DNA of 64,000 nucleotides, from the IMG/VR virus record IMGVR_UViG_3300035182_001315. The stretch is one strand, 5' to 3'. This document shows positions 2,306-62,869 of this stretch, piece by piece. This DNA comes from a virus (Duplodnaviria > Caudoviricetes). Position 1 is the stretch's first letter; each line of letters starts with the position of its first letter. The translations under genes and the position numbers were made by a program. The notes beneath the pieces were generated by a model. It saw only the letters and a program-made list of their open reading frames with translations, made no database searches and was not told where the DNA came from.

Positions 2306-2308
2306 ATT

Positions 2309-2336
2309 TAAAACCCCACTTTTTGTGGGGTTTTTT
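2309..2336. terminator. Rho-independent (bidirectional) terminator
   Basis: AAAACCCCAC-TTTT-GTGGGGTTTTTT hairpin directly after the clpC stop. Confidence 0.8.
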
Positions 2337-2344
2337 GATATTTA

Positions 2345-2752
2345 TTGGATATGAAAGGGTTAATTAAACATTTACTAAGAGAAGGACTATTTGACGCTGA
2401 TTCAGAAAAGCAAAAGGCTTTATTGGATAAGTTTGTTGAATTTGCATGCGATTTCTTAAAGATTCCTAAATCCAAGGTTATCTTAAGGTTCGACCGTGAT
2501 GGACTTACAACAACCGCTGCTTATGGCAACGGCGAAACTCAAGTCTATGCGAAGGACCGTGCTATTGTTGACATCATGCGCTCCATTGCCCATGAATTAA
2601 CCCATAACAAACAGGATGTTGAAAAGAGACTTCAACAAGATAAACACGAAACTCAAAATGCTGCCGGTTCACCAATCGAAAATGAGGCGAACGCTACTGC
2701 CGGTGTGATAATGAGAAAGTTCGGTGAAATGTATCCAATAATTTATCAATAA
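2345..2752 (+). CDS. Zincin-like HExxH protein
   Basis: RSIAHELTH motif followed by a distal ENEAN. Confidence 0.6.
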   Translation: MDMKGLIKHLLREGLFDADSEKQKALLDKFVEFACDFLKIPKSKVILRFDRDGLTTTAAYGNGETQVYAKDRAIVDIMRSIAHELTHNKQDVEKRLQQDKHETQNAAGSPIENEANATAGVIMRKFGEMYPIIYQ

Positions 2753-3055
2753 ATGAAACTCGAAGAACTTTTAGAAAGAGCCAAGGACCTTATCCTGAAC
2801 GGAACAATCAAAGGCTACACTTCCCAAATGTTTGAGGAAGCTGTAAAGAACGACCCTGTTCTATTCGCAGAATTATTGGATGAAGTCGGCCAGCAAGTAA
2901 AGGATTCAGATAGCCACAAGCAAACCGTAAGCATTTACGGCGAAGAACTCTCCGGCGTGGCCCTTGCATTCCATATGCTGAAGGTCGCAGAAGAACAAGG
3001 GATACAGGAAAATTTTATCAGAAGCCTTGTCTACAAAAAATTAAGAATCCTTTAA
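2753..3055 (+). CDS. hypothetical protein
   Basis: 100-aa ORF abutting the previous gene. Confidence 0.7.
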   Translation: MKLEELLERAKDLILNGTIKGYTSQMFEEAVKNDPVLFAELLDEVGQQVKDSDSHKQTVSIYGEELSGVALAFHMLKVAEEQGIQENFIRSLVYKKLRIL

Positions 3056-3140
3056 CCCAACATATTCATGGCTGAAACAAATCCTTTTGTTGTCAGTGTA
3101 ATGACCATTGTGAATATTCTTGTGAGTAACATCAATTCTA
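3050..3140 (-). pseudogene. Diverged duplicate of the GNAT gene 3' end
   Basis: EFRIDVTHKNIHNGHYTDNKRICFSHEYVG vs KLRTDVTHKNVFNNHYTDNKRLCGSFEYIG, with many synonymous differences. Confidence 0.65.
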
Positions 3141-3614
3141 AATTCTATTTTCGCCGATGTACTCAAAACTACCACATAATCGCTTATTGTCTGTATAGTG
3201 ATTATTAAAAACATTTTTATGGGTAACATCGGTTCTTAATTTCTTATGTTTATTAGTTGGTTTCCATAGTGGGGATTTTTCACGATAATCTATCATGCGT
3301 GGGTGTGCTGTACGTGAGAAGTACCTGTGGCCCTGTTCCAGATGGATTTGCGCCAGTGCATCCGAAAACCTAACACCAATACCCAATCCTTGAAAGTCAG
3401 GCAGGATAACCGTCCTGTGACCTCTCCAGCCATTCTTGAAATACGGGTTCGGCATCGACATGGTTGCACCAAACGCCACAATCTCATCCTGCCAGATTCC
3501 TACATAACATCTGGCGACATTATTGATATCACCACTTAGATAATGATGGTTCTTAAACATGGGCCATATATGATAGCTCGCTCTGTATACTTCAATCCTG
3601 ATTTCTGGGCGGAC
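3138..3614 (-). CDS. GNAT-like acetyltransferase domain, probably expressed as a -1 frameshift fusion to the upstream ABC ATPase
   Basis: RTVILPDFQGLGIG acetyl-CoA motif. The frame stays open upstream of the Met at 3560 (VRPEIRIEVYRASYHIWP) back to a GGG-T9 run. Confidence 0.8.
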   Translation of the reverse strand, partial: VRPEIRIEVYRASYHIWPMFKNHHYLSGDINNVARCYVGIWQDEIVAFGATMSMPNPYFKNGWRGHRTVILPDFQGLGIGVRFSDALAQIHLEQGHRYFSRTAHPRMIDYREKSPLWKPTNKHKKLRTDVTHKNVFNNHYTDNKRLCGSFEYIGENRI

Positions 3615-4213
3615 AAAAAAAAACCCTGATTGAATTCCCCAGAATCGGTATCAATTACCCAATCAGGTTCCAGCCAATCCAAGATATCCCTGTGACATGT
3701 GGCCACAACTACATTGTTTATCTCATTGCTCTTAAGGTATCTCGAAAGGGACACGGATGCAGCCCTTGCAACATTCCTATCCACCACGCTGGTAAACTCA
3801 TCAATAATGCTACCTGACTTAAGCTTTCTGGCAAGGTCAGCCCTGAACTTTTCACCGTTGGAAAGGATGTCATAAGGCTTGTACCATGAGGGAATGCTGT
3901 TTAACCCAACCGCACCCATCTTATTGATGGCTTCATCGGGGTCATTGAAATGAGAAAGTATGGATTTTGTGTTATCCCAAACTGGGGTATCTTCGGTACC
4001 AAACTGGTTAAGCAGTGTTGATTTGCCGGAGCCGGATGAGCCAACAATAACGCCGAGTCTGAATGTTTGAGGAATGGTTGCCGGTACCTGCCATGGCAAG
4101 AAGGTTGATGTGCCGTTGAATGCGCAATCAAAAGCCTTTTCACTGGCTAATATAAACTTATCTTTGGTAACTTGAGCGACCAGTGGCTGGTCAGACCTGA
4201 GCAATTTTTCCAT
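3536..4213 (-). CDS. ABC-type ATPase (phage ABC-GNAT family)
   Basis: Walker A GSSGSGKST, signature LSNGEK, Walker B IIDEF, CHRD H-loop. Confidence 0.88.
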   Translation of the reverse strand: MEKLLRSDQPLVAQVTKDKFILASEKAFDCAFNGTSTFLPWQVPATIPQTFRLGVIVGSSGSGKSTLLNQFGTEDTPVWDNTKSILSHFNDPDEAINKMGAVGLNSIPSWYKPYDILSNGEKFRADLARKLKSGSIIDEFTSVVDRNVARAASVSLSRYLKSNEINNVVVATCHRDILDWLEPDWVIDTDSGEFNQGFFLSAQKSGLKYTERAIIYGPCLRTIII

Positions 4214-4320
4214 CCCTGAGAATATACGGATGGTTGGGAAGATGTCAAGAGATTCATAAAATAGAATAGCTTGTGGATTTTAACACCCACAAGCTGTACT
4301 ATTTATTTGTTGTTTTTAAC

Positions 4321-4524
4321 TTATTTCTTGCCTTCAGTAAGCTTGTTTAGCTTCTCTTCCAAGTTGTTCAACTTTGTTTCCAAAATTGCGTTCTTGTCAC
4401 CCTTAGCAGCTTGTTCAGCTAACCATTCTTTCTTCTTAACGCTAACCGCTTCTGTAACAATTCCATCGATTAAATCTACCAAAGCAGATTCTGTAATTCT
4501 AACGGTTGTTTTTATTTTTGACAT
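4321..4524 (-). CDS. hypothetical coiled-coil protein
   Basis: Plausible start MSKIKTT at 4524. The longer ORF-track start is antisense to the next gene region. Confidence 0.6.
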   Translation of the reverse strand: MSKIKTTVRITESALVDLIDGIVTEAVSVKKKEWLAEQAAKGDKNAILETKLNNLEEKLNKLTEGKK

Positions 4525-4603
4525 AATAATGTGTTTTAGGGATTCTTTATCTCTTAATAAATATGTTTCGTTTCCAAAAAAGATAAAAAAACCTAAAAAA
4601 TTA

Positions 4604-5128
4604 TTAATGTGCATATTTATCCCCGGCGTAGGATGCTGCCCACGCTTCTGGCTTGATTTTGAAGTCGTAACCCATACCCAGAATGTAACCAATAGCAGAG
4701 CTAAGGGCCTTGTGAGACTCCCATCTTGGGTCAGGGTTAATGTCGGCGTGAATTTCAAGCTTGATACCCCACTTGTCCAAAAGAGGTGCGATTTCGTAGG
4801 CAACCTCGATAGACTTGCTAACTTCGGTCATCATACGTTCGTTTACACCTTCCTTGTTCATTTTGTGAACATTCATCTTGAAGCTTCTTTCGATACACTT
4901 TCCACCCAATCCCTTTGTTACACCACCGCCAAGGTCTTCCCTTACGTTGATAAGGATTACAGTCGCAAACTTATAGCCACGACCTTCCCTCTGAGAGTCA
5001 GTACCAACTGAAACCAGCATGATGTGTCCTTTAGCTCTTTCTTCCTGAATCAGGTTTTCAAGATATTCCAAGATTGGAAGTTCAATTAACCGACCTGCTC
5101 TGTACCATGTGTTTGTCTTCTGTGCCAT
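4604..5128 (-). CDS. RNase H-like protein (DUF458/YkuK type)
   Basis: VSVGTDSQ, RMMTEVSKSIEVA and LEIHADIN acidic motifs. Confidence 0.75.
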   Translation of the reverse strand: MAQKTNTWYRAGRLIELPILEYLENLIQEERAKGHIMLVSVGTDSQREGRGYKFATVILINVREDLGGGVTKGLGGKCIERSFKMNVHKMNKEGVNERMMTEVSKSIEVAYEIAPLLDKWGIKLEIHADINPDPRWESHKALSSAIGYILGMGYDFKIKPEAWAASYAGDKYAH

Positions 5129-5195
5129 AAAAATTTTTTTTATCTGTTAAATAAAAAAGTCCCCAGCTAATGAGGACTTATTATCTTATAAGGTG

Positions 5196-6614
5196 TTATA
5201 TCTTTGTTTGTGGTAATAACTCCTTTAATTTCTGATAATTGGCAGTCCCTATTTCATCTTCCTTTACAACGATACGGAATAATGAACCGCCGTTGCTCTT
5301 ATCCAAATATTTAATTTCCTCAGGAATATGCTTTAACCTGTTGCCAAGAAGGTTGAGTAAGTCAACGTTCTTCAGGTTGCCAATTTCCTTTGGAAGTGAT
5401 GTTAGGTTGTTCCCCGGCAAAGACAGCATTTCAAGTGTTGTCAGATTACCAACCGATGGATGCAATTCACAAAGCTTCGCATTCGAAATGATAAGCTGTT
5501 CGATGTTCTTAAACTTTGAGATATCAGGAAGTCTTGGAATTTCTCTGGTGGTGATTTTGATTGATGGAGAATTTGCATCCAGCAATTCAAAAAGACTCTC
5601 AGCAAAACCAAACTTTATCAGATAGTCCAAATATTTGTTCTTATCGATACCAGTTTTGTTGGCCTTCGCCATCGCCATTAATTCTTCATAGAAAAAATTG
5701 GTAAGCCCTTCGCTTTGCCTTAAAACTTTTTCATAGATGCTTACGTTCCCTGAGTTGCTTCTGTCCTTTAACTGGTCAGTCTCAAAGTGAATCTGATAAA
5801 GCTCTTGGGATTCTCCCGTGAAAAACTTATTGTTGATAATGATATACAAATTTGATGTTGGCCCCAGCGGTGTTTTATACGAAGTGTAATTCGTAAACAT
5901 ACCGTTGTTTTTTCTCGCCGTACACCAGTTCGCAAAACCATCAAATACTTCACTCGCATCTGTTGACTTCGGAATATAAAGTGTAAACTTTCTATCCTTA
6001 ACAGGAATGATAGCCTGCCCTATATCAACAAATCTTGTTATCTTCCTTTCAACTGCGCTTGGTTCCCTCTCAATAAATGGGTCAACCGCATCAAACAATT
6101 GAGATAAGGATTTATACTGGTTTATATCCGTAGGGTCTTTGATATCTTTTACAATATATGAACCCTTGCATAATTCCTTGAATCTTTGTTTTCTTTTATT
6201 ACCTTCAAACAGAGTGATATACGCACTCGCCTGTGGCAAATCCTCAACCGCAAATCTCAACGCCATATCCAAAGCAGTACCACCTTTCCAGATATATCTT
6301 GTGAATGTATTAAGCATCCACTGTACATACGACTTGTTCGGTGTTGGGTCGGCAGCAATCATCGCAGTAAAGGTTTTCAGCTCGATGCTGATTTTCTTTA
6401 TCTGCCTGTCCTTAACCTCAGAAGTACTCTTGGTCCATGTTAGGGCAAGCGGTGATTCTTCGGTTCCAATTAACTTAACCTTATAACCATCAGCCTCTAA
6501 CGCTGAGATTTTTTCATCAGTTGCTTTGGTTTTTCCCTTTTCGGATATGCCTTCGAAAACATCGAACTTCTCCGCTAAAAACGAAATTCTATCTTTGGTT
6601 TTTTGCTCTGTCAT
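5196..6614 (-). CDS. Phage protein with C-terminal leucine-rich repeats
   Basis: LPDISKFKNIEQLIIS / LHPSVGNLTTLEMLSL / LPKEIGNLKNVDLLNL / IPEEIKYL repeats; N-terminal DPTPNKSYVQW, DINQYKSL and NWCTA motifs. Confidence 0.75.
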   Translation of the reverse strand: MTEQKTKDRISFLAEKFDVFEGISEKGKTKATDEKISALEADGYKVKLIGTEESPLALTWTKSTSEVKDRQIKKISIELKTFTAMIAADPTPNKSYVQWMLNTFTRYIWKGGTALDMALRFAVEDLPQASAYITLFEGNKRKQRFKELCKGSYIVKDIKDPTDINQYKSLSQLFDAVDPFIEREPSAVERKITRFVDIGQAIIPVKDRKFTLYIPKSTDASEVFDGFANWCTARKNNGMFTNYTSYKTPLGPTSNLYIIINNKFFTGESQELYQIHFETDQLKDRSNSGNVSIYEKVLRQSEGLTNFFYEELMAMAKANKTGIDKNKYLDYLIKFGFAESLFELLDANSPSIKITTREIPRLPDISKFKNIEQLIISNAKLCELHPSVGNLTTLEMLSLPGNNLTSLPKEIGNLKNVDLLNLLGNRLKHIPEEIKYLDKSNGGSLFRIVVKEDEIGTANYQKLKELLPQTKI

Positions 6615-11088: not shown

Positions 11089-11997
11089 TTAAAAATTTTT
11101 TTGGCCCTGATTAACATTGAATGTGAAGATTCCTTCCTTGTTCCACATATCCAACACCTGCAACCTGTCATCATAAACACAGATTGGGTTATATGTTCCC
11201 TGAACATAATGATGCAATATCTCACGCTTCACAACCGTATCCTTCCTGCCGTCACCAGCCGGTCTCATAAACATCACATCCGGCTTGAACCCATGAAGCT
11301 CACACCACTCCAACGTTACCGCACGACAAACCTCATCCCTGCCGGTAACAAAAATGATTATTCTTCCAAGGCTTCTATGAAAATCAATATGCTCAACAAC
11401 AATCCTGTTGATGTCGTCACGGTAAACTTCCATCCAGTCAAACGGCCCACGATTGCCCATATGAGCCAACGTTCCGTCTATGTCAAATAGAACAGCCTCA
11501 GGCAACTCAGAATCCCAGTCAGGCTGAACAAGCGGAGCCTTCTGCATCTTCACCGGCTGGAAATCAAACGTACCCGTAAGATACTTGTAATCCTCAACCA
11601 TCTTCTTGATGACACCAGCACCCACCTTAGCATCACGTCCATTGTCACGCTCAATTGCCTTGTCAAGGCTGATATCAAATACACGATAATCAATGTCAGC
11701 TTGGAACCGGAAGTTCTCAATGATATTATCAATGTACCGCTGCTTCAGATTCGTATTATCAACAATCACATTCAGCTTCTTCCCCAGACACTCACCAATG
11801 ACGTTGAATATCATCTTGGTTATCATATCCTCAATCTTGTTCTCACAAAGCTGGGAATTCTTAAGCATCATGCGGAAGTCATCACGATTCACACGAACGT
11901 AATCAGCATGGTTGCGCACAAACTCCTTGGCCCAAGTAGACTTGCCTGACCCCGGAATGCCAATAAGTATCAATATTTTTAAGTTGCTCTTTTTCAT
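11089..11997 (-). CDS. pseT: Polynucleotide 5'-kinase/3'-phosphatase (T4 PseT-like)
   Basis: GIPGSGKST and NRDDFR kinase domain; HAD domain FDIDGTLA, GRKD, YDDR. Likely start MKKSNLK at 11997. Confidence 0.92.
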   Translation of the reverse strand: MKKSNLKILILIGIPGSGKSTWAKEFVRNHADYVRVNRDDFRMMLKNSQLCENKIEDMITKMIFNVIGECLGKKLNVIVDNTNLKQRYIDNIIENFRFQADIDYRVFDISLDKAIERDNGRDAKVGAGVIKKMVEDYKYLTGTFDFQPVKMQKAPLVQPDWDSELPEAVLFDIDGTLAHMGNRGPFDWMEVYRDDINRIVVEHIDFHRSLGRIIIFVTGRDEVCRAVTLEWCELHGFKPDVMFMRPAGDGRKDTVVKREILHHYVQGTYNPICVYDDRLQVLDMWNKEGIFTFNVNQGQKNF

Positions 11998-12142
11998 TTC
12001 TTTTTCTTTTCTTTTTCTTTTGCCAGAACCAACGTCTGCTTCTCGCCCCGCCAAACATGAGGGATAAATAAACGTACCCAATAATCCATAACAGGATTCG
12101 AATACCAATCACTAACATAAATAAGAACCCTATGGTTTCCAT
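11903..12142 (-). CDS. small membrane protein
   Basis: N-terminal hydrophobic helix followed by a basic tail. Confidence 0.5.
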   Translation of the reverse strand: METIGFLFMLVIGIRILLWIIGYVYLSLMFGGARSRRWFWQKKKKRKRNEKEQLKNIDTYWHSGVRQVYLGQGVCAQPC

Positions 12143-39818: not shown

Positions 39819-40027
39819 GCTTCTAGTATAAGGGTTCTTTGTTCAATGAGTTCATCGATGGCTGCATCGTAAACCTTTATTTGGATTTCGAGCAGGGTAT
39901 CGATGATTGTGCTATCCATCCATTTCCTTTCAACCAGTTCTTGCTTGATGGCTTCACGTTTGGCTATTTCAACGGCCATGTGGGAGTTGAGGGTTTTAAG
40001 GAAGATTTCTGTATCGTATGATGTCAT
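39815..40027 (-). CDS. hypothetical protein
   Basis: Coupled ORF. Confidence 0.65.
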   Translation of the reverse strand: MTSYDTEIFLKTLNSHMAVEIAKREAIKQELVERKWMDSTIIDTLLEIQIKVYDAAIDELIEQRTLILEA

Positions 40028-40230
40028 ATGTTGTATTTTAGTACCTGCATATATTGTTCTCTAAGGAGTTCAACTTCCATGGTATTGATATCAATATTGA
40101 CAATGAGTTTTATTCTCATGGCATCCATTGCTGGGGTTGTTCCGTTGAGGGATGCTATGTAATCAATACGTTCTTTGGCTACATTTAGCAGCGTGGCTTT
40201 CTTTTCAGCAATACGCTTACGGAAAGACAC
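40024..40230 (-). CDS. hypothetical protein
   Basis: Coupled ORF. Confidence 0.6.
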   Translation of the reverse strand: MSFRKRIAEKKATLLNVAKERIDYIASLNGTTPAMDAMRIKLIVNIDINTMEVELLREQYMQVLKYNI

Positions 40231-40265
40231 ATCGAGTTATAGTGCATTGAAGCTATGGTCTGTCA

Positions 40266-40508
40266 TTACTGATATTTTTCGAGTTCAAGGGTTAGGGTTT
40301 CAACGAGGGTGGTTGCGATGGCGTACTTCAGGCCCAAGTCTTTATGATGAGCGTTGTAATGGTCAGGCAGTTCACCTTTCTTATGTTTTTCATCAAGGTT
40401 TTCGAATGCTCGTTTATAGATAGCGGCTTTGATTCGTTCCTTATTGAGTTCGAATTCCAGAAGGTTTACGGTTACGGCGTTAACGATTAGAATGCTTTCT
40501 TTGTCCAT
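40266..40508 (-). CDS. hypothetical protein
   Basis: Promoter motif at ~40526. Confidence 0.7.
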   Translation of the reverse strand: MDKESILIVNAVTVNLLEFELNKERIKAAIYKRAFENLDEKHKKGELPDHYNAHHKDLGLKYAIATTLVETLTLELEKYQ

Positions 40509-40562
40509 AATTTTAGATTATGGGTAAAGATACGATGTCAAATTAATATAAACAAATATATC

Positions 40563-41015
40563 TTAATCTATTTTTGTAACTATGCAGCGGTAGGTTCTAT
40601 TGCATTCGAGGATGCCTGTGGTGATGGCATGGAAGAGGGGTGATTGGTCGTCGTTCATTGCATCGAGAGCAAAGAATCGGTTGCCTCTTTCGGTTACGAA
40701 GTCCTTGTCTGGGCTTCCATGTCCATCTCGCAGGCCGACCTTATCGAATACAAGAGCTAAGGTACCAGTTGCGCAAGACATGCCCTTTACAGTCAGACTG
40801 CCATTCACATCCCATTCACAAAGGCCAGCGATAAGGCCGAGTTGTCCGAGGCAGCATAAACCGATAATTTCATTACCGCTCTTTATACCCAGTTGTCCTT
40901 TTGTCTGAAGTTCAGGATGTTCCCTGAGTGCTTTTATCCAAGCTTTTTGTATAGGGCCAAGTATCATGTTGTGTTGTTTTGATTTGTTTTGCGTATTCGT
41001 AGAGTTCAATACCAA
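40563..41015 (-). CDS. hypothetical protein
   Basis: WIKALR, LCCLG and MNDD motifs; real start probably MILGP. Confidence 0.6.
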   Translation of the reverse strand: MVLNSTNTQNKSKQHNMILGPIQKAWIKALREHPELQTKGQLGIKSGNEIIGLCCLGQLGLIAGLCEWDVNGSLTVKGMSCATGTLALVFDKVGLRDGHGSPDKDFVTERGNRFFALDAMNDDQSPLFHAITTGILECNRTYRCIVTKID

Positions 41016-41370
41016 TCATGGTGTTGGGTGTGTTTTTAAGAACTTGACTCAACACATACCAATTGCTTGCTTCAACAGCCAGTTGGAATGTATTGATTCG
41101 TTTCTTGTTATGGTCAACTGGAACCTTAGATATACTAACCGTTGAGAACTTTAGTTCGACTGATTTTTTCTTTTCGTAGTTTAAGAACCTAACGTCACCA
41201 GTTGAGGTTAGTTCAACCCCAGTATAATTCGAAGTCTGCTTCGTTCAACATCTTCAAGATGTTCTTTGGCGTAGCGTGAAACTTGATGCCATGGCTAAGC
41301 ATTTCATCTTCTTTAAGTGGCTTTGTTTCTGTCATGGTGGTAATGTTTCAACAAAGATAGGAACTCTTTT

Positions 41371-41583
41371 TTAGAGTTCCAAATATTCTTTTTTGGCTTG
41401 GTTAAGCCTTTCGATGGTTGCTGTAAGTTTCTCTTGCCATTTGGCCTTGGCATCATCGTTCTTGCAATTGTCGAAGATGAAGGTTTGTTTGTATATCAAT
41501 GCCTTTAGTCCGAGGGTTTTACCTCTGAGTGTTTTGGCTTTTTCCCAGCGTTCTTTGAGCTGGTCATACTCTTGGTCAGTCAT
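41371..41583 (-). CDS. hypothetical protein
   Basis: Start MTDQEYDQL. Confidence 0.6.
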   Translation of the reverse strand: MTDQEYDQLKERWEKAKTLRGKTLGLKALIYKQTFIFDNCKNDDAKAKWQEKLTATIERLNQAKKEYLEL

Positions 41584-41842
41584 CGTTGTCTTGGTTTTCG
41601 TATTGTTCAGGTGTGCAGAAGTGAGTACTGTTATATGAGTCTTCAATTCCCACCAGTGTTATGTTGGTATGCCATGAGTGGATATCCATTGATTCCAGTT
41701 CATAGGTCTCACCAATCTCAAGCAACTTGCGTGGGTCACGCCGTTCCACACGGTGAGAACCCCAGTTAACTTGGTCATCGCTTGCGCCGGTAAAGATAAT
41801 CTTATCTCCCAGTTGGATTGTGTTGATGTCAATGCAGTTCAT
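41576..41842 (-). CDS. hypothetical protein
   Basis: Real start MNCIDIN at 41842; the ORF-track extension is translated CRISPR repeat. Confidence 0.65.
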   Translation of the reverse strand: MNCIDINTIQLGDKIIFTGASDDQVNWGSHRVERRDPRKLLEIGETYELESMDIHSWHTNITLVGIEDSYNSTHFCTPEQYENQDNDD

Positions 41843-41869
41843 CGGTAGTATACTTTTCTTTCCAGTTGT

Positions 41870-42093
41870 GTTGTAAATAGCTTTCAAATTGTGGCCTTTT
41901 ACAATAGCATGTAAGACAGGTACAAGTTGTAAATAGCTTTCAAATTGTGGCCTTTTACAATCTTGATGGTTTTTGGGACGATGCATTTTTTGTTGTAAAT
42001 AGCTTTCAAATTGTGGCCTTTTACAATGGTATACCCTAAAACAATATAAGATGTTAGGTTGTAAATAGCTTTCAAATTGTGGCCTTTTACAAT
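41870..42093. CRISPR. CRISPR mini-array, 4 identical 36-bp repeats GTTGTAAATAGCTTTCAAATTGTGGCCTTTTACAAT
   Basis: Repeats at 41870-41905, 41926-41961, 41992-42027 and 42058-42093; unique spacers of 20, 30 and 30 nt; a further 27-nt unit ends at the partial repeat GTTGTAAAT (42121). Confidence 0.93.
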
Positions 42094-42120
42094 ACATAGA
42101 TATCTCTGTTTACTTCAAGA

Positions 42121-42231
42121 GTTGTAAATGGTTATTAACCAATTAATTTGAAAGAACTATTTTCTATCACAACGCATGATTTATTAATCTACGTTAACAT
42201 GATATAGCGATACACTTCGCATTTTATATTT
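42121..42231 (-). ncRNA. Anti-repeat / omega-RNA-like scaffold candidate
   Basis: 42145-42173 is complementary to the repeat (AATTTGAAAG..CTATTT..ACAAC); hairpins at 42207-42220 and 42130-42140. Confidence 0.65.
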
Positions 42232-43506
42232 CTAAGTTAAATCTAATTTTTGTAAACAATGTTTCTTTAGATTATTGGCAGCGTTCAAATCCCTCTCATT
42301 AATTACGCCACATTCACACACCCAGTTTCTATTCGCTAAGGTTAAATCTGTTTTCTTTTTACCACAAGCGCATGTCTTACTTGAAGCAAAAAACCTATCA
42401 GCTTTTAGAATATTTTTTCCTTGCCATTCAGCTTTATATGTGAGCATATTCATGAATGTTGCCGGTGCGGTATCTAAGATTGACTTGTTCAATCCTGATT
42501 TTTGCTTAATCATTTTTCCCGGCTTATCAACAGTACCACTTGCCGAGACGGTCATTCCTTTTATATTTAGGTCTTCAATACAAATGGTATTATAATCATT
42601 AATCAGTTTAGCGGATACGTTACTAAGGTAATCTTTTCTAATGTTGGCTATCTTCTCATGAATCTTAGCAACAACTAATTTTTGTTTCTTATATCCATTT
42701 GATTGCTTTTCTGCTCCGTTTACATACTTACGTTGAAGCTTTCTCTGCTCCTTAGCAAGGATTCTTTCCCAATCTTTAGTAATTGTTTGCCTCTCGATTT
42801 CGATACCATTTGAGAGTGTAGCAAAGGTTTTAAGCCCCCAATCCAGCCCAACGGTTGTTTCATCAATAATTTCTTTCTTTACTGGTAATTCAATTCCATT
42901 GTCTACAAGAATTGAAATGAAGAATTTCCCAGAAGATTCGACGCTTACAGTACACGTCTTTATTTTTCCATTAAATGGTCTATGAAGAATAATATTAACT
43001 GCTCCAATCTTAGGTATAATAACCAATTGCTTTTCAAAGTCAACTCTTACACCTTGCGAAAATTGGCAGGACTTTCTTGAAAATGTTTTGCTCTTGAATC
43101 TGGGAAATCCCGGCTTTTTACCTTGTTTTACATTGGTAAAGAAGTTTTTATAGGCTCTATCTAAATTTCCTAATGCGTCAATAATACTTTTTGCGGCAAT
43201 TTCTTTTAACCAAACCTTTTCTTTTTTAAGCGTTGGTACCAAATATGATAAATCGAACCCTGATAAATGTTTGGTACTTTTAATTAGTGAAATATTTTCC
43301 GATTGTATAACGCTTGTTGTTTTTTCAGCAACGCTTTGAGCTGTTACTTTTTTATATATAAAACCTCTGATATTATTTCCTTCATACAATTGCTTATTAA
43401 GGGATAACCCCCAATTGTAAATAAATCTTACAGACCCAAAAGACTTGAGGAAAAAGTCTACTTGTCCTTGTGTTGGTAAAATTCGATATTTAAAAGCTTT
43501 AATCAT
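42232..43506 (-). CDS. tnpB: TnpB / Cas12f-like RNA-guided RuvC endonuclease, CRISPR-associated
   Basis: KAFKYRILPT OrfB HTH start, GFPRFKSK, RuvC-I VGLDWGL, RuvC-II ICIEDL, zinc finger SSKTCACG..WVCECG, RuvC-III RDLNAA. Confidence 0.92.
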   Translation of the reverse strand: MIKAFKYRILPTQGQVDFFLKSFGSVRFIYNWGLSLNKQLYEGNNIRGFIYKKVTAQSVAEKTTSVIQSENISLIKSTKHLSGFDLSYLVPTLKKEKVWLKEIAAKSIIDALGNLDRAYKNFFTNVKQGKKPGFPRFKSKTFSRKSCQFSQGVRVDFEKQLVIIPKIGAVNIILHRPFNGKIKTCTVSVESSGKFFISILVDNGIELPVKKEIIDETTVGLDWGLKTFATLSNGIEIERQTITKDWERILAKEQRKLQRKYVNGAEKQSNGYKKQKLVVAKIHEKIANIRKDYLSNVSAKLINDYNTICIEDLNIKGMTVSASGTVDKPGKMIKQKSGLNKSILDTAPATFMNMLTYKAEWQGKNILKADRFFASSKTCACGKKKTDLTLANRNWVCECGVINERDLNAANNLKKHCLQKLDLT

Positions 43507-43513
43507 TTTATTT

Positions 43514-43526
43514 AGGCAAATATACT
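43514..43526 (-). promoter_or_regulatory. Bacteroidota-type -7 element upstream of tnpB
   Basis: TAGTATATTTG on the minus strand ~10 nt before the ATG. Confidence 0.55.
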
Positions 43527-43535
43527 AAAAATTTT

Positions 43536-43766
43536 TTATTTAAGTTTAAATCTTGATAATCTGAAAATTGGTCCAAACTTCTCTTTCCATTCTGTTACAC
43601 ATTCAATACACAGGAAGCTTTTTACATCAGCTCGCCCTTTAACGCTTTCCTTTCCGCTTTCACCCATGGCTATGGGTCTCTTGCAACATAGGCAGGTGCC
43701 ATCTCGTTTGAATGCTTCAACGTCTTTCCAGCGTTCGTGTCCTTCTTTCGGTGTGTGAAATGCCAT
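43536..43766 (-). CDS. small zinc-finger-like protein
   Basis: CLCC and CIEC. Confidence 0.65.
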   Translation of the reverse strand: MAFHTPKEGHERWKDVEAFKRDGTCLCCKRPIAMGESGKESVKGRADVKSFLCIECVTEWKEKFGPIFRLSRFKLK

Positions 43767-44285
43767 TTAGTTGTATATTTTATTTATCCGGTGAATCAAA
43801 AATTCTTCAAGTTCTGGCTCTCGGCCCACCTCATTGATAACCCTATCTACTATTCGGTCCCAGTAGATTTCCTGAATTCTCCACTCTGGTGTGCCTTTGT
43901 AATGGTCACCGCCTGAGTTGATGTAGTGGTCCAGCCAACTATGCATTCCCTCTAATATCTGTTCGTCTGTGAGTGCTAAGTTATATCTTTCTATGAAGAC
44001 TTCAAAATCTGTTTCCTCATTTAGATAATATACTTCGGTTGACCAAGCTGCTTCAGGCCCATCAATAAGCATATTTCTTCTTGGTAAAACCGTTACCGTT
44101 TCATTAAAATAATTCGTATAAAGGCTTTCTGAAAAGAAATAAAAGAAGAGTGTTTCAACATCACCACGTTTAAAGGTAAGTTGAATTGAACTGTTATATG
44201 ATGCATCATATAAAAATTTAAAACCGATTGCTTTAGCCCGTTCCTGAACACCATTAATGATTCTCATTTGGAACGAATTGAACAA
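43767..44285 (-). CDS. hypothetical protein
   Basis: 172-aa ORF. Confidence 0.65.
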   Translation of the reverse strand: MFNSFQMRIINGVQERAKAIGFKFLYDASYNSSIQLTFKRGDVETLFFYFFSESLYTNYFNETVTVLPRRNMLIDGPEAAWSTEVYYLNEETDFEVFIERYNLALTDEQILEGMHSWLDHYINSGGDHYKGTPEWRIQEIYWDRIVDRVINEVGREPELEEFLIHRINKIYN

Positions 44286-44417
44286 CTTATATATGCTTTC
44301 AGATATTATATTATAACTCCCATGCCTTTGAATTCTTGTTTCTTACATTCTGTGCATTCATGTAATTCTGAATAAGCTACCGAACCACCTTCTGGTGGGT
44401 TAGGAGTTGGATTTGTA

Positions 44418-44822
44418 TCAATGTTCTTCCACATATGGAATCCGAAATGACACTTGATTGCTTGGAAAATTAATTTTATCATATTCTGATAGATTCATTG
44501 CTTGCCCATACATTGCTTGCCCATACATTGCTTGCCCATACATTGGGCTTATGTATTCAAGAGAAAAGTAATCCTTAAGTATCCCCCGAATGAAGTCTCT
44601 TGCTTCATTCGCAGTTAAACCGAAATTATCCCTGATGAAAGCCCAGAGAGTCATGTTAACTACAAGTTTTCGTTCGACTCTCTCAAGGACGAATATCGGC
44701 ATTTTATTTGAATAAAAGAACAATCTATTCACAGCCTCTTCTGACAATTGCCTAACCTCAAAATTACCATACTGTCTAAAGAAATGCTTTCGTATTATAT
44801 CGGTGTATTCCTTATCAATCAT
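44418..44822 (-). CDS. hypothetical protein containing an in-frame 15-bp x3 repeat
   Basis: MYGQA x3. Confidence 0.65.
   Translation of the reverse strand: MIDKEYTDIIRKHFFRQYGNFEVRQLSEEAVNRLFFYSNKMPIFVLERVERKLVVNMTLWAFIRDNFGLTANEARDFIRGILKDYFSLEYISPMYGQAMYGQAMYGQAMNLSEYDKINFPSNQVSFRIPYVEEH
44496..44545. repeat. 15-bp tandem repeat x3
   Basis: CATTGCTTGCCCATA x3 plus CATTG. Confidence 0.9.
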
Positions 44823-45286
44823 TTATACTGGAAGGTTATATCATTGTATTCCTTAGCTTCGTATCTTACCCAGCCTTCCTTGCGCCACAGGTGAAAGTAA
44901 GCGATACCAACATCCAGTGCCATCTTTGAACAGATAGAGCAATACGGTTCACCGCTGTGCTTCGGTTGGTCGTTGTCATCAAGCCGGATGAAGTACAGTG
45001 AGCTACCAGTCAGGTCCTCATGGTTCTTCAATGCATCGGTAATAGCCCGTTGTTCGGCATGTATGCAGCAGGTCTTATCAGACTTGAAGGTTGGTGCCAA
45101 GCCATCCTTGAAGCATTCAGTTTGCAAGTCACATGGCATTGAGTTATAACCTTGTCCTATGCAGAACTTCTTATCGTTCATGATGATGCTACCACACTTT
45201 GAACGAGAGCATTTGGCTTTGGATGCTACCATGACCAACTTGGCCATTACGTAATCCAGTTCTGATGAGTTGGGGAGTATTATCAT
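44819..45286 (-). CDS. dCMP/cytidine deaminase family protein
   Basis: GQGYNS, HAEQRAI, PYCSIC zinc motifs. Confidence 0.85.
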   Translation of the reverse strand: MIILPNSSELDYVMAKLVMVASKAKCSRSKCGSIIMNDKKFCIGQGYNSMPCDLQTECFKDGLAPTFKSDKTCCIHAEQRAITDALKNHEDLTGSSLYFIRLDDNDQPKHSGEPYCSICSKMALDVGIAYFHLWRKEGWVRYEAKEYNDITFQYK

Positions 45287-45699
45287 TCTCCGTATTTTTT
45301 AGAGTAATATAAAAGTATTCCCAGCGCCGGTATCCAAGACCACCATAACGTGGAAAAGCCCCTTATTATTAAATCCAATTGTATTTTTATTTCTTCAATT
45401 GCTTGTTCAATGGTTGTTACCCGCTCAGGATAAGCCTCACCCCAATTAGACTTAACAACATCCATATGCCTCTCAAAATCCCTTGCTGGTGAAATAACAC
45501 CCTGAGAAATTGTCAACCTTACAACCAGATGATTAGCACCATACTTATAGGTTACGAATGTCGCCACATCATCAAATACCTTATCAATGTCTGCCTCTGT
45601 ATCATACAAGTGAATGGTTGTGGTATAGCAGGTGTTATCCCTTTTATCAAAGTAACCCACTATCTGGTTGTTGTGTATGATAGCCAATGCGTATTTCAT
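45283..45699 (-). CDS. hypothetical protein with C-terminal TM
   Basis: Coupled ORF. Confidence 0.65.
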   Translation of the reverse strand: MKYALAIIHNNQIVGYFDKRDNTCYTTTIHLYDTEADIDKVFDDVATFVTYKYGANHLVVRLTISQGVISPARDFERHMDVVKSNWGEAYPERVTTIEQAIEEIKIQLDLIIRGFSTLWWSWIPALGILLYYSKKYGE

Positions 45700-46046
45700 T
45701 ATCTTGTCTTTTGTAAGGTTCTGAGAATATCAATCATTTCCTGACGGTCATTAGCACACCTTTGACAGCTGGGATAATGAATCCAATGACGACCAACCAT
45801 GTAATCATGACCATCACTTCCCCGATATACCTTCTCTTCCGAGCCATATATCATGAGTTTCTTAACCACGCTGTCTTGAGGGATTGTTGATTGATTAACG
45901 AGGGGAGCCTTAAATCGTGTGTTGTGGCGTTTACAAGTGAACGGTGCAACGATACTAATAGCTCCGAGGGTACATACCAAGATGAAAGGGAATGTTTGTT
46001 TAGTTATTCCGTTACCGAATCTCATAATTGTAAATTTATAGAACAA
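45699..46046 (-). CDS. hypothetical membrane-anchored protein
   Basis: N-terminal hydrophobic segment; HYPSCQRC. Confidence 0.6.
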   Translation of the reverse strand: MFYKFTIMRFGNGITKQTFPFILVCTLGAISIVAPFTCKRHNTRFKAPLVNQSTIPQDSVVKKLMIYGSEEKVYRGSDGHDYMVGRHWIHYPSCQRCANDRQEMIDILRTLQKTR

Positions 46047-46077
46047 AGATACAAAGACACAACGAGATAATCAAATA

Positions 46078-46632
46078 TTATTTGACATTTCTGAAAGAAG
46101 TTTTGGTGTCGAAGCCAGCTGAGATAATCTTGTTTTCATTGCTTTGTGGTGCCGGTGCGTCATCCTTTGGTGATAACCATTCGGTAAGCTTCATGTAAAT
46201 GCTGAAGGCCGGTAGTATGCGATTGATACCAATATCCTGAAGTATTGGGTACTTGCAGAAACCAGTATACATACCTATCAGGCAGTTTTCTTTTTTGTTA
46301 TACTCGTCCTTGTCAATCTCACCATCCAACGGAAGGTAACCCTTTTCGGTATGAACCTCACGTTCTCTGGGCTTCTTTGCCCAGTACTTTTGTCTCCATG
46401 TGGCCATTGGTTCCGGGGTTGTCTCAACCTCTCTGAGTTGTTCACCGAAGTAATAGTTTCCATCCTTAAACACCCCAGTATATTTCCATCCACAGAAATA
46501 AACGTAAATGATTTGCGTTTCGAACAACTCATGCTTATCGTGGCTACGCCTGTCCAAAACGACTTTAGGGTCCTCACCATAGAGACCCACAAGGTAGTCA
46601 TAGTAATCTTTCTACTTGGATATGATTTTCAT
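46078..46632 (-). pseudogene. Conserved phage protein with an early in-frame TAG
   Basis: MKIISK*KDYYDYLVGLYGEDP (TAG at 46612-46614). Confidence 0.65.
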
Positions 46633-55341: not shown

Positions 55342-57039
55342 TTACAGTTTGGCCAACCTCTCCCTGATAGCAGTGAGCGTTGTTTGGTTATAGAATACAC
55401 TGTCTCTGAAGATTACCTTCAATTCATTGGCATCAGAGTTAACCTCAGCCCATGTTGAACGGTCTTTGATTACGTAATCACCGGCAGCATCCTTTACCAC
55501 CATGATAAGGCCACGGGCACTCTTCTTCACACCGCTATCAGTAATAGGGTCTTTGAAGATTTCGATACCTTCAGTTACACCGTTAACTTCAATCTCGATG
55601 TAAGTCGCCTTCTGTGCGAAGCCGTGTGTGTCACGGGTAACAAACTGCAATGAGTAGCTACCAACACCCAACACGATGTTTGTTGAAGCAAAGCCTTTCG
55701 CAGCCAGCCTTTCAAACATTTGTTCCGCACGGCTGTATGTAATAGAATCACCATAAATGGCACCGATGTGAGAATTCAATCTCTTGTAGCCGGTTGATGA
55801 TGTATCACCGCCGAAGATGTCCCACAGCAATTCAATAACACCTTTCTTCTCAGCGTCACTGACATATATTTTGGTAAAATATTCAGAAGCCTGATATACA
55901 TCATTTTCACCATATTCTTCCAATGTAGATTGGAAACCATCACCGTCAAACTCATATACGTCACCATTGTACAATACACGTTTTGTCTTGGTTTGAAGAC
56001 AATCCTGAATGTCAAGTTCTGCTACTGGTTTGATACCACATATGATATCAACTGGGTCTCCAGAATCAGGACGTATAACCAACTTACCATCACGAGCAAG
56101 GATTTCATCCTTCAGGATACGACAGTAGTCAACGATAACTCTCCACAAGTCCCATGTATCGCTCACCAACGACAGGATGCCGGTTGGAAATTTCCTTAAC
56201 AGATAACGGAAGGTTTCAACCTCAACCTCACCAATCTTGTCCCAGCTACCTTCTTTGGTTTTGACAAAGAAGCCAGTCAGAGAACACATGATGGCATGCT
56301 CAGAGGCGATAACTGAATTGATACATACTTCCTTTTCGAAGTAGAACTTACGAGCTGCTGGTATAACCGGCAGGGTATCGCTACCACGGGAAGTTGTTGC
56401 GAAGCCCAAGCCACTGTTCACGATTGAAGACATACCATCCATACCTCTCATTGAGAAATTGTGGAACTGGTAATCAACAAACCATGCATTCTCAGGGTCA
56501 GTCTTAGCAATCCATTTGTTACCTAGTCTGCGTAGAGCCAAGCCAAGTGTTGCACTGGTAGGTGCATTCCATGCTTCAGCGGACAGGATTGTTTCAAGGT
56601 AGTTTACTATCCAGTCGAACACACCACCATCCAATGGCTTAGTGTTTACAATGGTATAGAATGGAACCTTGTATTTGATTTCGGTACCTTCCTGAATCGA
56701 ACGGATTTCGATTGGTAGGTAACCCAGTGTGTGTAGTTGTTTGAAGTGAGTTACGTCAATTGGTTCTTTGAACATCAACAGGTCACCCATGTCTTTTGCG
56801 AAGTCATCAATTTCTACGATTGGTCGGTTGAAGAAGTTGTTCTTCCAATCTTCCTGAATCTTCATAACCAACATCTGCTGGCCGAAGGATACAATCTTAC
56901 CGTTGTTTGGGCAGTTTGAATTCTTGCCGCTACGTGGCGTAAAGTTTGACTGCATCAGTGTGCTACCTACTGGAAGCATTGGCTTGTGTCCAACTTTGTA
57001 AGTATCGACGTTGTAAATAGATAACCAATTGAAATTCAT
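55342..57039 (-). CDS. nadV: Nicotinamide phosphoribosyltransferase-like enzyme (NAMPT; Namat if NARP1)
   Basis: DTYKVGH, HNFSMRG, ASEHAIMC, VSDTWD, IRPDSGDP, IYGDSIT. Confidence 0.92.
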   Translation of the reverse strand: MNFNWLSIYNVDTYKVGHKPMLPVGSTLMQSNFTPRSGKNSNCPNNGKIVSFGQQMLVMKIQEDWKNNFFNRPIVEIDDFAKDMGDLLMFKEPIDVTHFKQLHTLGYLPIEIRSIQEGTEIKYKVPFYTIVNTKPLDGGVFDWIVNYLETILSAEAWNAPTSATLGLALRRLGNKWIAKTDPENAWFVDYQFHNFSMRGMDGMSSIVNSGLGFATTSRGSDTLPVIPAARKFYFEKEVCINSVIASEHAIMCSLTGFFVKTKEGSWDKIGEVEVETFRYLLRKFPTGILSLVSDTWDLWRVIVDYCRILKDEILARDGKLVIRPDSGDPVDIICGIKPVAELDIQDCLQTKTKRVLYNGDVYEFDGDGFQSTLEEYGENDVYQASEYFTKIYVSDAEKKGVIELLWDIFGGDTSSTGYKRLNSHIGAIYGDSITYSRAEQMFERLAAKGFASTNIVLGVGSYSLQFVTRDTHGFAQKATYIEIEVNGVTEGIEIFKDPITDSGVKKSARGLIMVVKDAAGDYVIKDRSTWAEVNSDANELKVIFRDSVFYNQTTLTAIRERLAKL

Positions 57040-61637: not shown

Positions 61638-61919
61638 TTAAAATATTGAGTCATCGCTATGACCGTGATTGAATGTTTTCAGAAATTCTTTATGAAATTC
61701 AAATCCAGCTTGAAACAATCTCAACGCATAATCCCATTGACCTTCGTATCTTTCTTGTGGATTGTTCTGTACCCAATCTTCATACGCAAGTTTTACTGTA
61801 TGGTCAACTATCAATGGATAATAGTAAACCCAGCAATGGTCACAACTGTGAGCACATTCTGATTCACCTTCTATCTGGCGCTGGCAATATACTGGTGGGT
61901 CTAATGGACTTAAACTCAT
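61638..61919 (-). CDS. hypothetical protein
   Basis: YCQRQ..CAHSCDHC. Confidence 0.6.
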   Translation of the reverse strand: MSLSPLDPPVYCQRQIEGESECAHSCDHCWVYYYPLIVDHTVKLAYEDWVQNNPQERYEGQWDYALRLFQAGFEFHKEFLKTFNHGHSDDSIF

Positions 61920-62869
61920 AGTCTGATTGATTGTACGTACTCGATGTGTTCCTTGCTCATCGGTGTGCCGGTAAAGTTCAGCGTCAGAAATGTTGTAATG
62001 ATATCCGCATCCGTAGCTGTTTCCTGTAGCTCACCTACTGCAAGGTTATTGTATTCTAAGAACTTGTGCTGCGCATTTGCAGACAAGTCTTTGTAATAGT
62101 TTCCGAATTCATCTGGGAACTTGTTCTGAACAAATTCCAACAGGGCATTATAACGTTGCTTTCCATCAATACAATCCCTGTCATAGCCATGGCCGATTCT
62201 TTTGATTTGGTCAACGATGCTGGCCCATGAATTATACTTGAAGATGAACTTTCCAATTTCGATTCCGTTATAGATGCTGTGAATAAGCAATTGCTTTTGT
62301 TCAAGCGTCCAAACATGCCCACGCTGATAGAACACTCTTTTTCCAGTGGCATCAACCACTGATGGGTCGAAGTTTAATCCACCATAGGTCTTACCAAGAA
62401 GCTCCTTGTCACCGGGAGACTTGCCATCAATAATCTTGGTTGATACCAAGTCGTATGTATCATCCAAACGGCCATATCCGCCGCTGAAGAACAACGATTC
62501 AACCATTGAGGAAATGAAGGTTACCCTTAGTTTCGTTTTGAAAGGGTCAGCACCGCATTCACGGGTTGAATGCTTTACGTTTACCGGCATGTAAAACCCA
62601 TCAGTATCAACAAACTTTATCTCACTGGGCTGGCTCCTGTAAAATGTTTTAACACCAACAATTTCACCATGCTTTGGGTGGTTGAATAATGCAACAACCT
62701 CGCCGCTCTCGTGAAACACCTTAGGTTCATCGGTATATACCCATTCAGCCTTCTTACCCTTAACCATAAGTTCAGACTTTCTGGCTGTGTATTCTACCCT
62801 TACCTCAACTGCATTACCCACCTTTAATGGGGTGGCAAGTTTTGCGCTTATGGCTTCTTGTTTGGTCAT
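61916..62869 (-). CDS. DUF262 (ParB/Srx-like) domain protein
   Basis: YQRGHVW, LIHSIYNGIEIG, IDGKQR, FLTLN. Confidence 0.8.
   Translation of the reverse strand: MTKQEAISAKLATPLKVGNAVEVRVEYTARKSELMVKGKKAEWVYTDEPKVFHESGEVVALFNHPKHGEIVGVKTFYRSQPSEIKFVDTDGFYMPVNVKHSTRECGADPFKTKLRVTFISSMVESLFFSGGYGRLDDTYDLVSTKIIDGKSPGDKELLGKTYGGLNFDPSVVDATGKRVFYQRGHVWTLEQKQLLIHSIYNGIEIGKFIFKYNSWASIVDQIKRIGHGYDRDCIDGKQRYNALLEFVQNKFPDEFGNYYKDLSANAQHKFLEYNNLAVGELQETATDADIITTFLTLNFTGTPMSKEHIEYVQSIRL

Follow-up and report, generated by a model that had tools for sequence, protein, structure and literature searches.

How might the omega-RNA of a TnpB nuclease come to work as two separate RNAs, the tracrRNA (trans-activating CRISPR RNA) and the crRNAs (CRISPR RNAs)? 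This question is raised by a 64-kb phage stretch (IMG/VR record IMGVR_UViG_3300035182_001315, Caudoviricetes; hereafter the window), in which a tnpB-like gene on the minus strand (42232-43506, stop codon 42232-42234) encodes a protein of 424 amino acids (aa), P0001, with a RuvC triad and a zinc ribbon, and is followed by a short CRISPR array. The window was compared with the loci L001, L002, L003, L004, L005, L036, L037 and L050. Our results support that positions 42121-42231 form the 3′ portion of an omega-RNA scaffold of TnpB, on the same strand as tnpB and with covarying helices kept in relatives, and we favor, with moderate confidence, the reading that this part of the scaffold now works as a tracrRNA.

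On the minus strand, the region past the stop codon begins with an A-rich tract and hairpin 1 (GCGA-AGTGTA-TCGC, hairpin at 42207-42220). The next helix, P2 (42165-42204), pairs TATCATG (42198-42204) with TGTGATA (42165-42171) and encloses a conserved AACGTAG...CATGCGTT hairpin (42171-42195); a conserved CATGTTAACGTAG...CATGCGTT element lies between hairpin 1 and the 29-nt stretch (42145-42173) that the initial annotation, a model's reading of the sequence, had called the anti-repeat. The core of this stretch, AAAATAG-TT-CTTTCAAATT (42145-42163), has the repeat segment AATTTGAAAGCTATTT as its partner, over 6 + 10 bp. It is followed by a cis terminal hairpin, AATTGGTTAATAACCATT (42127-42144), and the tail of the cis end, TACAAC (42121-42126). 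Read through, this part consists of GGTTAATAACC and then ATTTACAAC, ending at 42121, and ATTTACAAC is common to the cis end and the 3′ end of the repeat. A 27-nt unit (42094-42120) separates the omega-RNA end from the first repeat. The array (41870-42093, minus strand) begins 138 nt past the tnpB stop codon in the same orientation as tnpB and contains four identical 36-nt repeats (42058-42093, 41992-42027, 41926-41961 and 41870-41905) with the spacers S1 (42028-42057, 30 nt), S2 (41962-41991, 30 nt) and S3 (41906-41925, 20 nt). A CRISPR array is defined by at least three near-identical repeats of 23-55 nt and unique spacers of similar size, and these four repeats with spacers of 30, 30 and 20 nt agree with that definition; the 21-nt repeat core occurs 4 times against 0.01 expected by chance. 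The elements that the initial annotation had named (stop codon, hairpin, anti-repeat, 9-nt repeat end, 27-nt unit and full repeat) are all present on the minus strand where it had placed them.

Is the region an omega-RNA? Homologous RNAs are found downstream of tnpB in relatives, among which the proteins of L001 (P0003), L002 (P0004), L050 (P0123) and L036 (P0006) share 52%, 51%, 43% and 42% identity with P0001, respectively (P0123 is 50% identical to P0003). Folding the window, L001, L002 and L036 together with RNAalifold revealed compensatory double changes in 9 of the 16 predicted pairs, and single-sequence folds of the window and of a second L001 copy give helices matching the alifold consensus. 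Hairpin 1 is common to the relatives, with a compensatory change in the L001 version (GCGG...CCGC). A fold with covariance across homologous loci had been proposed with the initial annotation as a check; it supports hairpin 1, P2 and the ACGUAG hairpin. The claim that the scaffold derives from an omega-RNA is therefore upheld by homologous downstream RNAs with compensatory changes in hairpin 1 and P2. In short, the region is a structured RNA at the 3′ end of tnpB, conserved in relatives, with a guide position 3′ of the scaffold, as is characteristic of an omega-RNA. An Rfam scan of 40000-45000 on both strands (E up to 1) returned a chance small nucleolar RNA match only and no omega-RNA or tracrRNA family, and a scaffold-motif scan of IMG/VR gave two chance matches, both in coding DNA.

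The second scaffold copy in L001 (2983-3093) stands alone, ~1.65 kb downstream of the tnpB-linked copy; it begins ~12 nt before the tnpB stop-codon position, and a tRNA-like sequence comes after it. Given its layout, we take this copy as the canonical cis form of the scaffold: after P2 it has GAA only, then a short perfect hairpin, ATTCCT-TAT-AGGAAT, with ATACAGC as its tail, and finally a new guide. Compared with it, the window carries ~19 extra unstructured nt (42145-42163) between P2 and the terminal hairpin, which are also unpaired in the scaffold's own single-sequence fold. In TnpB relatives at about 35% identity the scaffold ends ...TTTACAAC in three distinct insertion contexts; judged by such relatives, the ...ATTTACAAC cis end belongs natively to the TnpB RNA, and the repeat family happens to have the same end. 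The 27-nt unit is identical in the window, L003 and L004, in all three of which the cis hairpin and tail are intact, and it has no target in the window or the comparison loci; it is either a relic cis guide or an array leader. L003 (5720-5740) and run X2 (window 42120) carry the 10-nt omega-RNA end CATTTACAAC twice in tandem, and L003 also has a different array.

Do the additional nucleotides serve as an anti-repeat? When RNAduplex pairs the 101 nt past the stop codon with the repeat, helices of 10, 4 and 7 bp form in that order, separated by bulges of first 2 and then 6 nt. The energy is -19.6 kcal/mol compared with a dinucleotide-shuffle mean of -10.6 (sd 2.4); 2 of 500 shuffles reach this value. 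The apparent 6-nt bulge is P2. Of the 10 + 6 + 5 bp pairing proposed in the initial annotation, the 6 + 10 bp core at 42145-42163 stands, but the 5-bp GTTGT:ACAAC helix conflicts with the covarying P2: since GTTGT uses the 3′ strand of P2, the two are probably incompatible. Ranking by duplex energy alone was abandoned, as GC-rich chance duplexes outrank the anti-repeat. Because its duplex energy is not unique in the window, the case for the anti-repeat rests on its position and on the relatives.

The relatives provide this case. When the scaffold of each lineage was paired with its own repeat and with the repeats of the other lineages, the window preferred its own (-14.0 versus -4.9 to -7.2 kcal/mol), as did L001 (-14.4 versus -3.9 to -8.0 kcal/mol) and L050 (-17.4 versus -6.6 to -12.6 kcal/mol), so that anti-repeat and repeat covary across these lineages (n = 3). 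L050 has three 36-nt repeats of another sequence with 30-nt spacers in a similar small open reading frame (ORF) context, and its anti-repeat starts ~10 nt after the conserved GCGTT, which is where the window scaffold has its own; a further complementary segment in the L050 scaffold pairs with the 5′ half of its repeat, and no cis unit precedes its array. L001 has one partial extra repeat unit past the first guide. The scaffold copy next to tnpB is complementary to this unit; two substitutions set that copy apart from the stand-alone one, and both improve its pairing with the partial unit. The anti-repeat proposed in the initial annotation is thus strengthened by own-repeat preference and by the lineage-specific counterparts that L001 and L050 have at the corresponding place in their scaffolds. 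Like a tracrRNA, it is complementary to the 3′ half of the repeat and encoded beside effector and array. With these matched pairs in hand, we consider it fairly likely that 42145-42163 functions as a tracr-type anti-repeat for TnpB. The initial idea of an omega-RNA splitting into tracrRNA and crRNA agrees overall with the published TranC scheme, by scaffold homology and matched anti-repeats.

Transcription of the scaffold and array probably starts at the tnpB promoter. A Bacteroidota-type -7 promoter box (TATATTTG, 43517-43524, minus strand) lies 11 nt upstream of the tnpB start codon, in the gap of only 29 nt between tnpB and the previous ORF, and no further minus-strand TAnnTTTG box occurs until 41352-41359. 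No terminator-like site was found on the minus strand near the locus. The genes around the scaffold and array all run on the minus strand, and the plus strand has no TAnnTTTG box between 40576 and 46385. The gene downstream of the array starts at 41842: a 173-aa ORF (41576-42097) crosses the array, its 5′ end being spurious and ATG 41842 the most likely true start. An A-rich tract stands 5′ of hairpin 1 in four lineages (window 42207-42231, L001:1340-1365, L002:6138-6195 and L036:2719-2745), and the opposite strand therefore reads as an intrinsic terminator, a hairpin with a T run. It is tempting to speculate that hairpin 1 and this T run may halt antisense transcription into tnpB.

The array is actively changing. 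L004 is identical to the window, while L003, whose protein is identical to P0001, has an array of three repeats in which the tnpB-proximal spacer is a different one and the distal S3 carries 1 change. A difference from the window at the end near tnpB, with the distal spacer in common, is the pattern of polar spacer turnover. Contigs of four DNA runs from sediment and microbial-mat metagenomes end at the repeats; among the sequencing runs listed for this stretch there was no RNA run. Two 151-nt contigs hold exactly S1 or S2 outside arrays, with unrelated flanks on both sides; both matches have TCTTTTT immediately 5′ (crRNA sense) and nothing in common 3′ (n = 2). This flank, a candidate motif from two cases, is consistent with the T-rich 5′ motifs of type V/TnpB nucleases. 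Relatives of the IS605 type in Arachidicoccus soli have a T-rich (G/T)TTTTAT flank on the left-end side. A search of the window revealed no self-targets of the spacers. In three runs, contigs of 246-281 nt contain the repeat with 2 differences between other flanking sequences (matching 41870-41904 / 42058-42092). In each run their depth is similar to that of the phage, whose genome may therefore have a second repeat-bearing locus outside the window.

Where did the repeat come from? According to the initial annotation, the repeats arose from a duplicated omega-RNA 3′ end. This part of the proposal is not supported by the comparison, since only 9 nt are common and the whole 36-nt repeat matches L005 (31/36) and Flavobacterium repeats. 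A repeat-core scan of metagenomes led to L005, the other three of the four metagenome matches being single chance matches; the exact repeat has no match in IMG/VR or the species genomes. In L005 (array and Cas12f-like gene in segments 718-3850 and 4230-5795), ~48 heterogeneous 36-nt repeats of at least two subtypes lie directly downstream of, and co-oriented with, the gene for the 521-aa P0122, whose best PDB match is a nuclease-deactivated Cas12f (9n9c, E 1e-57) and which shows no BLASTP similarity to P0001. A phage-integrase-like ORF is located beyond this array. The window repeat agrees with the distal repeats of L005 at 31/36 positions, and this agreement extends to its 5′ half, for which the scaffold has no counterpart. 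Its identity to Flavobacterium columnare CRISPR-2 is 26/36, and it also resembles the cas9-linked repeat of F. psychrophilum (sequences from PMC5395568), with scores reached by 0 of 2000 shuffles. A repeat ending ...ACAAC followed by a spacer has the orientation of the omega-RNA, where the scaffold ends ...ACAAC before the guide, and the L005 repeat is co-oriented likewise. A match of 31/36 beside a Cas12f-like gene, together with the likeness to Flavobacterium, suggests a host-type repeat, which was probably not made by duplicating this omega-RNA end. Copying of the window tracr region from an L005-type locus was ruled out, as the L005 anti-repeat pairs with other repeat segments and the proteins are unrelated by BLASTP. 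The simplest reading of the comparison would be capture of a host-type repeat or array, downstream of an omega-RNA end compatible with it, followed by a gain of complementarity in the scaffold. A more far-reaching proposal, to which we assign only a low probability, is that the phage TnpB scaffold evolved its anti-repeat against a host-type repeat, draws on host Cas1-Cas2 for spacers and could load host crRNAs of that family. If true, type V-like immunity would have arisen through capture of an existing repeat and not through omega-RNA duplication.

To what extent is the array shared? Arrays are absent from 25 IMG/VR relatives (28-42% identity) and from the tnpA-linked A. soli copies, so the association with repeat units is a property of a small subclade; this limitation to a subclade comes from a small but consistent sample of sequences. 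Searching the species genomes for single-protein loci yielded distant relatives only. Scaffold-end duplications do occur in the subclade, in L036 and L001. In L036 (2779-2861; L037 alike) the final 17 nt of the scaffold, GGTGCGAATACCGGCAA, occur a second time exactly 66 nt downstream, a spacing equal to the CRISPR period 36 + 30; similarity further upstream is only partial. This duplication could be a one-unit proto-array. As part of the host-repeat-capture proposal, it is conceivable, if rather improbable, that the stand-alone scaffold and partial unit of L001, the 66-nt end duplication of L036 and the full mini-arrays of the window and L050 are graded intermediates. Taken together, the window combines a TnpB-like protein, intact in its RuvC site, with a same-orientation downstream array, an association also present in L050 and partially in L001, as in TranC or type V-U loci.

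P0001 contains the Pfam domains HTH_OrfB_IS605, OrfB_IS605 and Cas12f1-like_TNB and matches NCBIfam guided_TnpB with 274 bits. It aligns to ISDra2 TnpB (E 6e-42) with the catalytic residues aligned, and by this alignment its RuvC triad (D222, E311 and D406) is intact. The PADLOC Cas12u4 and Cas12f models also give full-length matches (E about 1e-77), and the RuvC half aligns to RdCas12n 9j09 (E 6e-38), both having an insertion after RuvC-II. The AlphaFold2 model of P0001 has a pLDDT (predicted local distance difference test) of 89; its best structural neighbors are ISFba1 and ISDra2 TnpB, with template modeling (TM) scores of up to 0.81-0.84 relative to the target, and the LaTranC and Cas12f structures are well behind. 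An insert of ~30 aa at residues 46-78 (window 43276-43371), in the N-terminal lobe, is lineage-specific and predicted to be disordered, and P0123 carries a different insert, after RuvC-I; both appear to be modest accretions of the kind found in array-associated TnpB relatives.

The window tnpB does not behave as an IS200/IS605 mobile element. The neighboring ORFs contain no Y1_Tnp domain (tnpA), the 29-nt gap leaves no room for a left end, and tnpB and its scaffold are single-copy within the window; tnpA and defined ends are present in the A. soli IS605 relatives. P0001 is a domesticated TnpB, and the gene content around it points to a large phage with a Bacteroidota host. Other proteins encoded in the window are a ClpB-like double AAA+ ATPase (2-2305), a polynucleotide kinase/phosphatase (11089-12108), a NAPRTase-family protein (55342-57039) and a protein with a GmrSD N-terminal domain (61916-62869), which fit the auxiliary genes expected of a large phage.

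We propose a model in which tnpB, scaffold and array would be co-transcribed on the minus strand from the Bacteroidota-type promoter before tnpB. The scaffold would retain hairpin 1 and P2 around the ACGUAG hairpin and would have gained the ~19-nt single strand before the old terminal hairpin. This stretch is predicted to pair with the 3′ half of each 36-nt repeat, so that the duplex would replace the cis terminal stem and put the ...ACAAC tail of the repeat and the spacer at the normal guide position of an omega-RNA. Processing and loading of the crRNA into TnpB would complete the guide. The transposase-less phage TnpB, with its intact RuvC site, would then cut spacer-matching DNA beside a T-rich 5′ motif (TCTTTTT in two cases), the targets most plausibly being DNA of competing mobile elements or phages. 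New spacers would be inserted at the tnpB-proximal repeat, and since the repeat is of a Bacteroidota family and neither cas1 nor cas2 was found nearby, they would probably be acquired through host Cas1-Cas2 in trans. The retained cis hairpin, ACAAC tail and 27-nt unit would represent the ancestral single-guide end, possibly kept as one fixed guide or a leader.

Several observations weigh against this model. The covariation comes from only three or four independent lineages, and GTTGTGATA, which belongs to the initially proposed pairing, doubles as the 3′ strand of P2, which covaries in relatives. The anti-repeat duplex has a modest energy that is not unique in the window, where a tile scan found a few GC-driven chance duplexes that beat it, and the L050 duplex (-17.4 kcal/mol) is marginal, being reached by 26 of 500 shuffles. 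The spacers gave only chance-level matches (E of 1 or more) in a cultured-phage collection, and their 22-mers gave none in IMG/VR. The neighboring ORFs and the ten largest ORFs of the window contain no Cas1 or Cas2 domains. The TCTTTTT flank, known from only two short contigs, can equally be read as a 3′ motif, AAAAAGA, of the Cas9 type. Finally, the repeat family also adjoins other effector types, and a host effector could be the true user of the array. The mini-array might accordingly supply crRNAs to a host effector (Cas12f-like, Cas13b or Cas9), with both the adjacency to tnpB and the scaffold complementarity being incidental or secondary. The repeat is 31/36 identical to the L005 repeats beside a Cas12f-like gene and 26/36 identical to F. 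columnare CRISPR-2, and it resembles the cas9-linked F. psychrophilum repeat (0/2000 shuffles; PMC5395568); moreover, its format of 36-nt repeats and 30-nt spacers is that of the L005 and Flavobacterium arrays, the window has no cas genes among the neighboring and ten largest ORFs, and the protospacer flank suits a 3′ motif as well. However, the repeats of L050 and L001 differ and are matched by their own anti-repeats at the same scaffold position, which chance adjacency does not explain, and the L005 anti-repeat pairs with other parts of its repeat. Type V and TnpB nucleases, and not Cas9, typically have a motif that directly adjoins the protospacer on its 5′ side, as the candidate motif does here. 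We regard use by a host effector as unlikely.

The complementarity might also be a recombination scar or an inverted partial copy of the repeat, with TnpB using only its cis omega-RNA and the fixed 27-nt guide and the array being independent. That three variants keep the cis hairpin, the tail and the 27-nt unit intact and identical, that relatives use cis scaffolds, including stand-alone copies, and that the duplex energy is modest would all suit such a relic. Yet a matched anti-repeat and repeat recur in L050, where no cis unit precedes the array; the 10-nt tandem duplication in L003 and X2 suggests relaxed constraint on the cis end; and the 27-nt unit has no target in the window or the comparison loci. 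We give this explanation about as little credence as use by a host effector, and the same holds for a possible role of the fixed guide within it, such as homing or retention in phage genomes. Still less probable, and in our view close to negligible, is a plus-strand origin, in which the array and the complement of 42145-42173 would form a Cas9-type crRNA and tracrRNA, and the complement of hairpin 1 with its T-rich tail a terminator. In that direction the repeat starts GTTGTAAATAGCTTTCAA, like Flavobacterium type II-C repeats (PMC5395568 Table 4), and the anti-repeat is followed by hairpins and then by a hairpin with a T-rich run. But those hairpins are omega-RNA elements conserved in array-less relatives, which would require a coincidence; the neighboring genes are all on the minus strand, with no plus-strand TAnnTTTG box at 40576-46385, and no Rfam tracrRNA or other family was matched on either strand. 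The split omega-RNA, with the scaffold as tracrRNA of TnpB, remains the explanation we prefer.

What does the locus add to the known route from TnpB to Cas12? In one view, arrays arose by duplication of an omega-RNA segment; in the other, by tnpB landing beside, or capturing, an array (PMC10691335). In a survey of 40 V-U groups of TnpB-like proteins with downstream arrays, duplication versus capture was left open (Altae-Tran et al. 2023, PMC10691335). The loci compared here offer a natural series for that question, namely a canonical cis scaffold, a scaffold with a partial unit, and an anti-repeat with a retained cis end and a changing array, and the window repeat points to capture from the host repeat pool. 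With small parts (a 424-aa protein, a scaffold of ~110 nt and a 36-nt repeat) and a candidate T-rich motif, the split-guide model is directly testable.

Compared with IS200/IS605 TnpB (ISDra2 and ISFba1), P0001 has its best sequence and structure matches there, and the scaffold is likewise found downstream of the gene, on its strand, with the guide position 3′ of the scaffold; unlike these elements, the window has no tnpA, no left end and a single copy, and its scaffold carries an anti-repeat with guides predicted to come from a CRISPR array. A bulged repeat:anti-repeat duplex and a T-rich 5′ motif are typical of type V. P0001 shares with Cas12n (type V-U4) and Cas12f the full-length PADLOC matches and the alignment of its RuvC half to 9j09, but its N-terminal half is without their expansions, the 9j09 match covering only residues 180-417 (Foldseek TMq 0.36). 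In the predicted structure, P0001 does not have the full-length Cas12n architecture and its fold is closest to plain TnpB. The Cas12f-like P0122 shares the repeat family but has no sequence similarity to P0001. Virus-borne mini-CRISPR arrays that rely on host Cas proteins are likewise short, with host-type repeats and no adaptation genes found nearby, whereas the window encodes an RNA-guided nuclease and a matching anti-repeat immediately upstream.

The closest parallel is with TranC (transposon-CRISPR intermediates), in which the omega-RNA (reRNA) is split into tracrRNA and crRNA, as published with biochemistry and structures by Jin et al. (Cell 2025, doi 10.1016/j.cell.2025.09.004; cited both in PMC13565253 and in bioRxiv 10.64898/2026.03.27.714800). 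Phage-borne members include CauTranC9 (Caudoviricetes), of about 414 aa, with 5 repeats and no expanded REC/WED domains (bioRxiv 10.64898/2026.03.27.714800), and adaptation genes are missing from many V-U and TranC loci too (PMC10691335). The window resembles TranC in its TnpB-sized protein with a RuvC site, its short downstream array, the lack of adaptation genes found nearby and the predicted scaffold-derived tracrRNA and crRNA. P0001 is distant from LaTranC (E 2.5e-9, TM 0.58-0.64), and the window repeat has 36 nt compared with the 38 nt reported for TranC clade 9 (bioRxiv 10.64898/2026.03.27.714800). Unlike TranC, the window locus retains a complete cis omega-type end and a 27-nt unit before the array, and its repeat is from a host repeat family. 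As the TranC concept is already published, the locus represents an informative further example of it and not a new principle, and its useful particulars are the retained cis end, the host-family repeat, the turnover of the array, the candidate motif and relatives resembling earlier steps.

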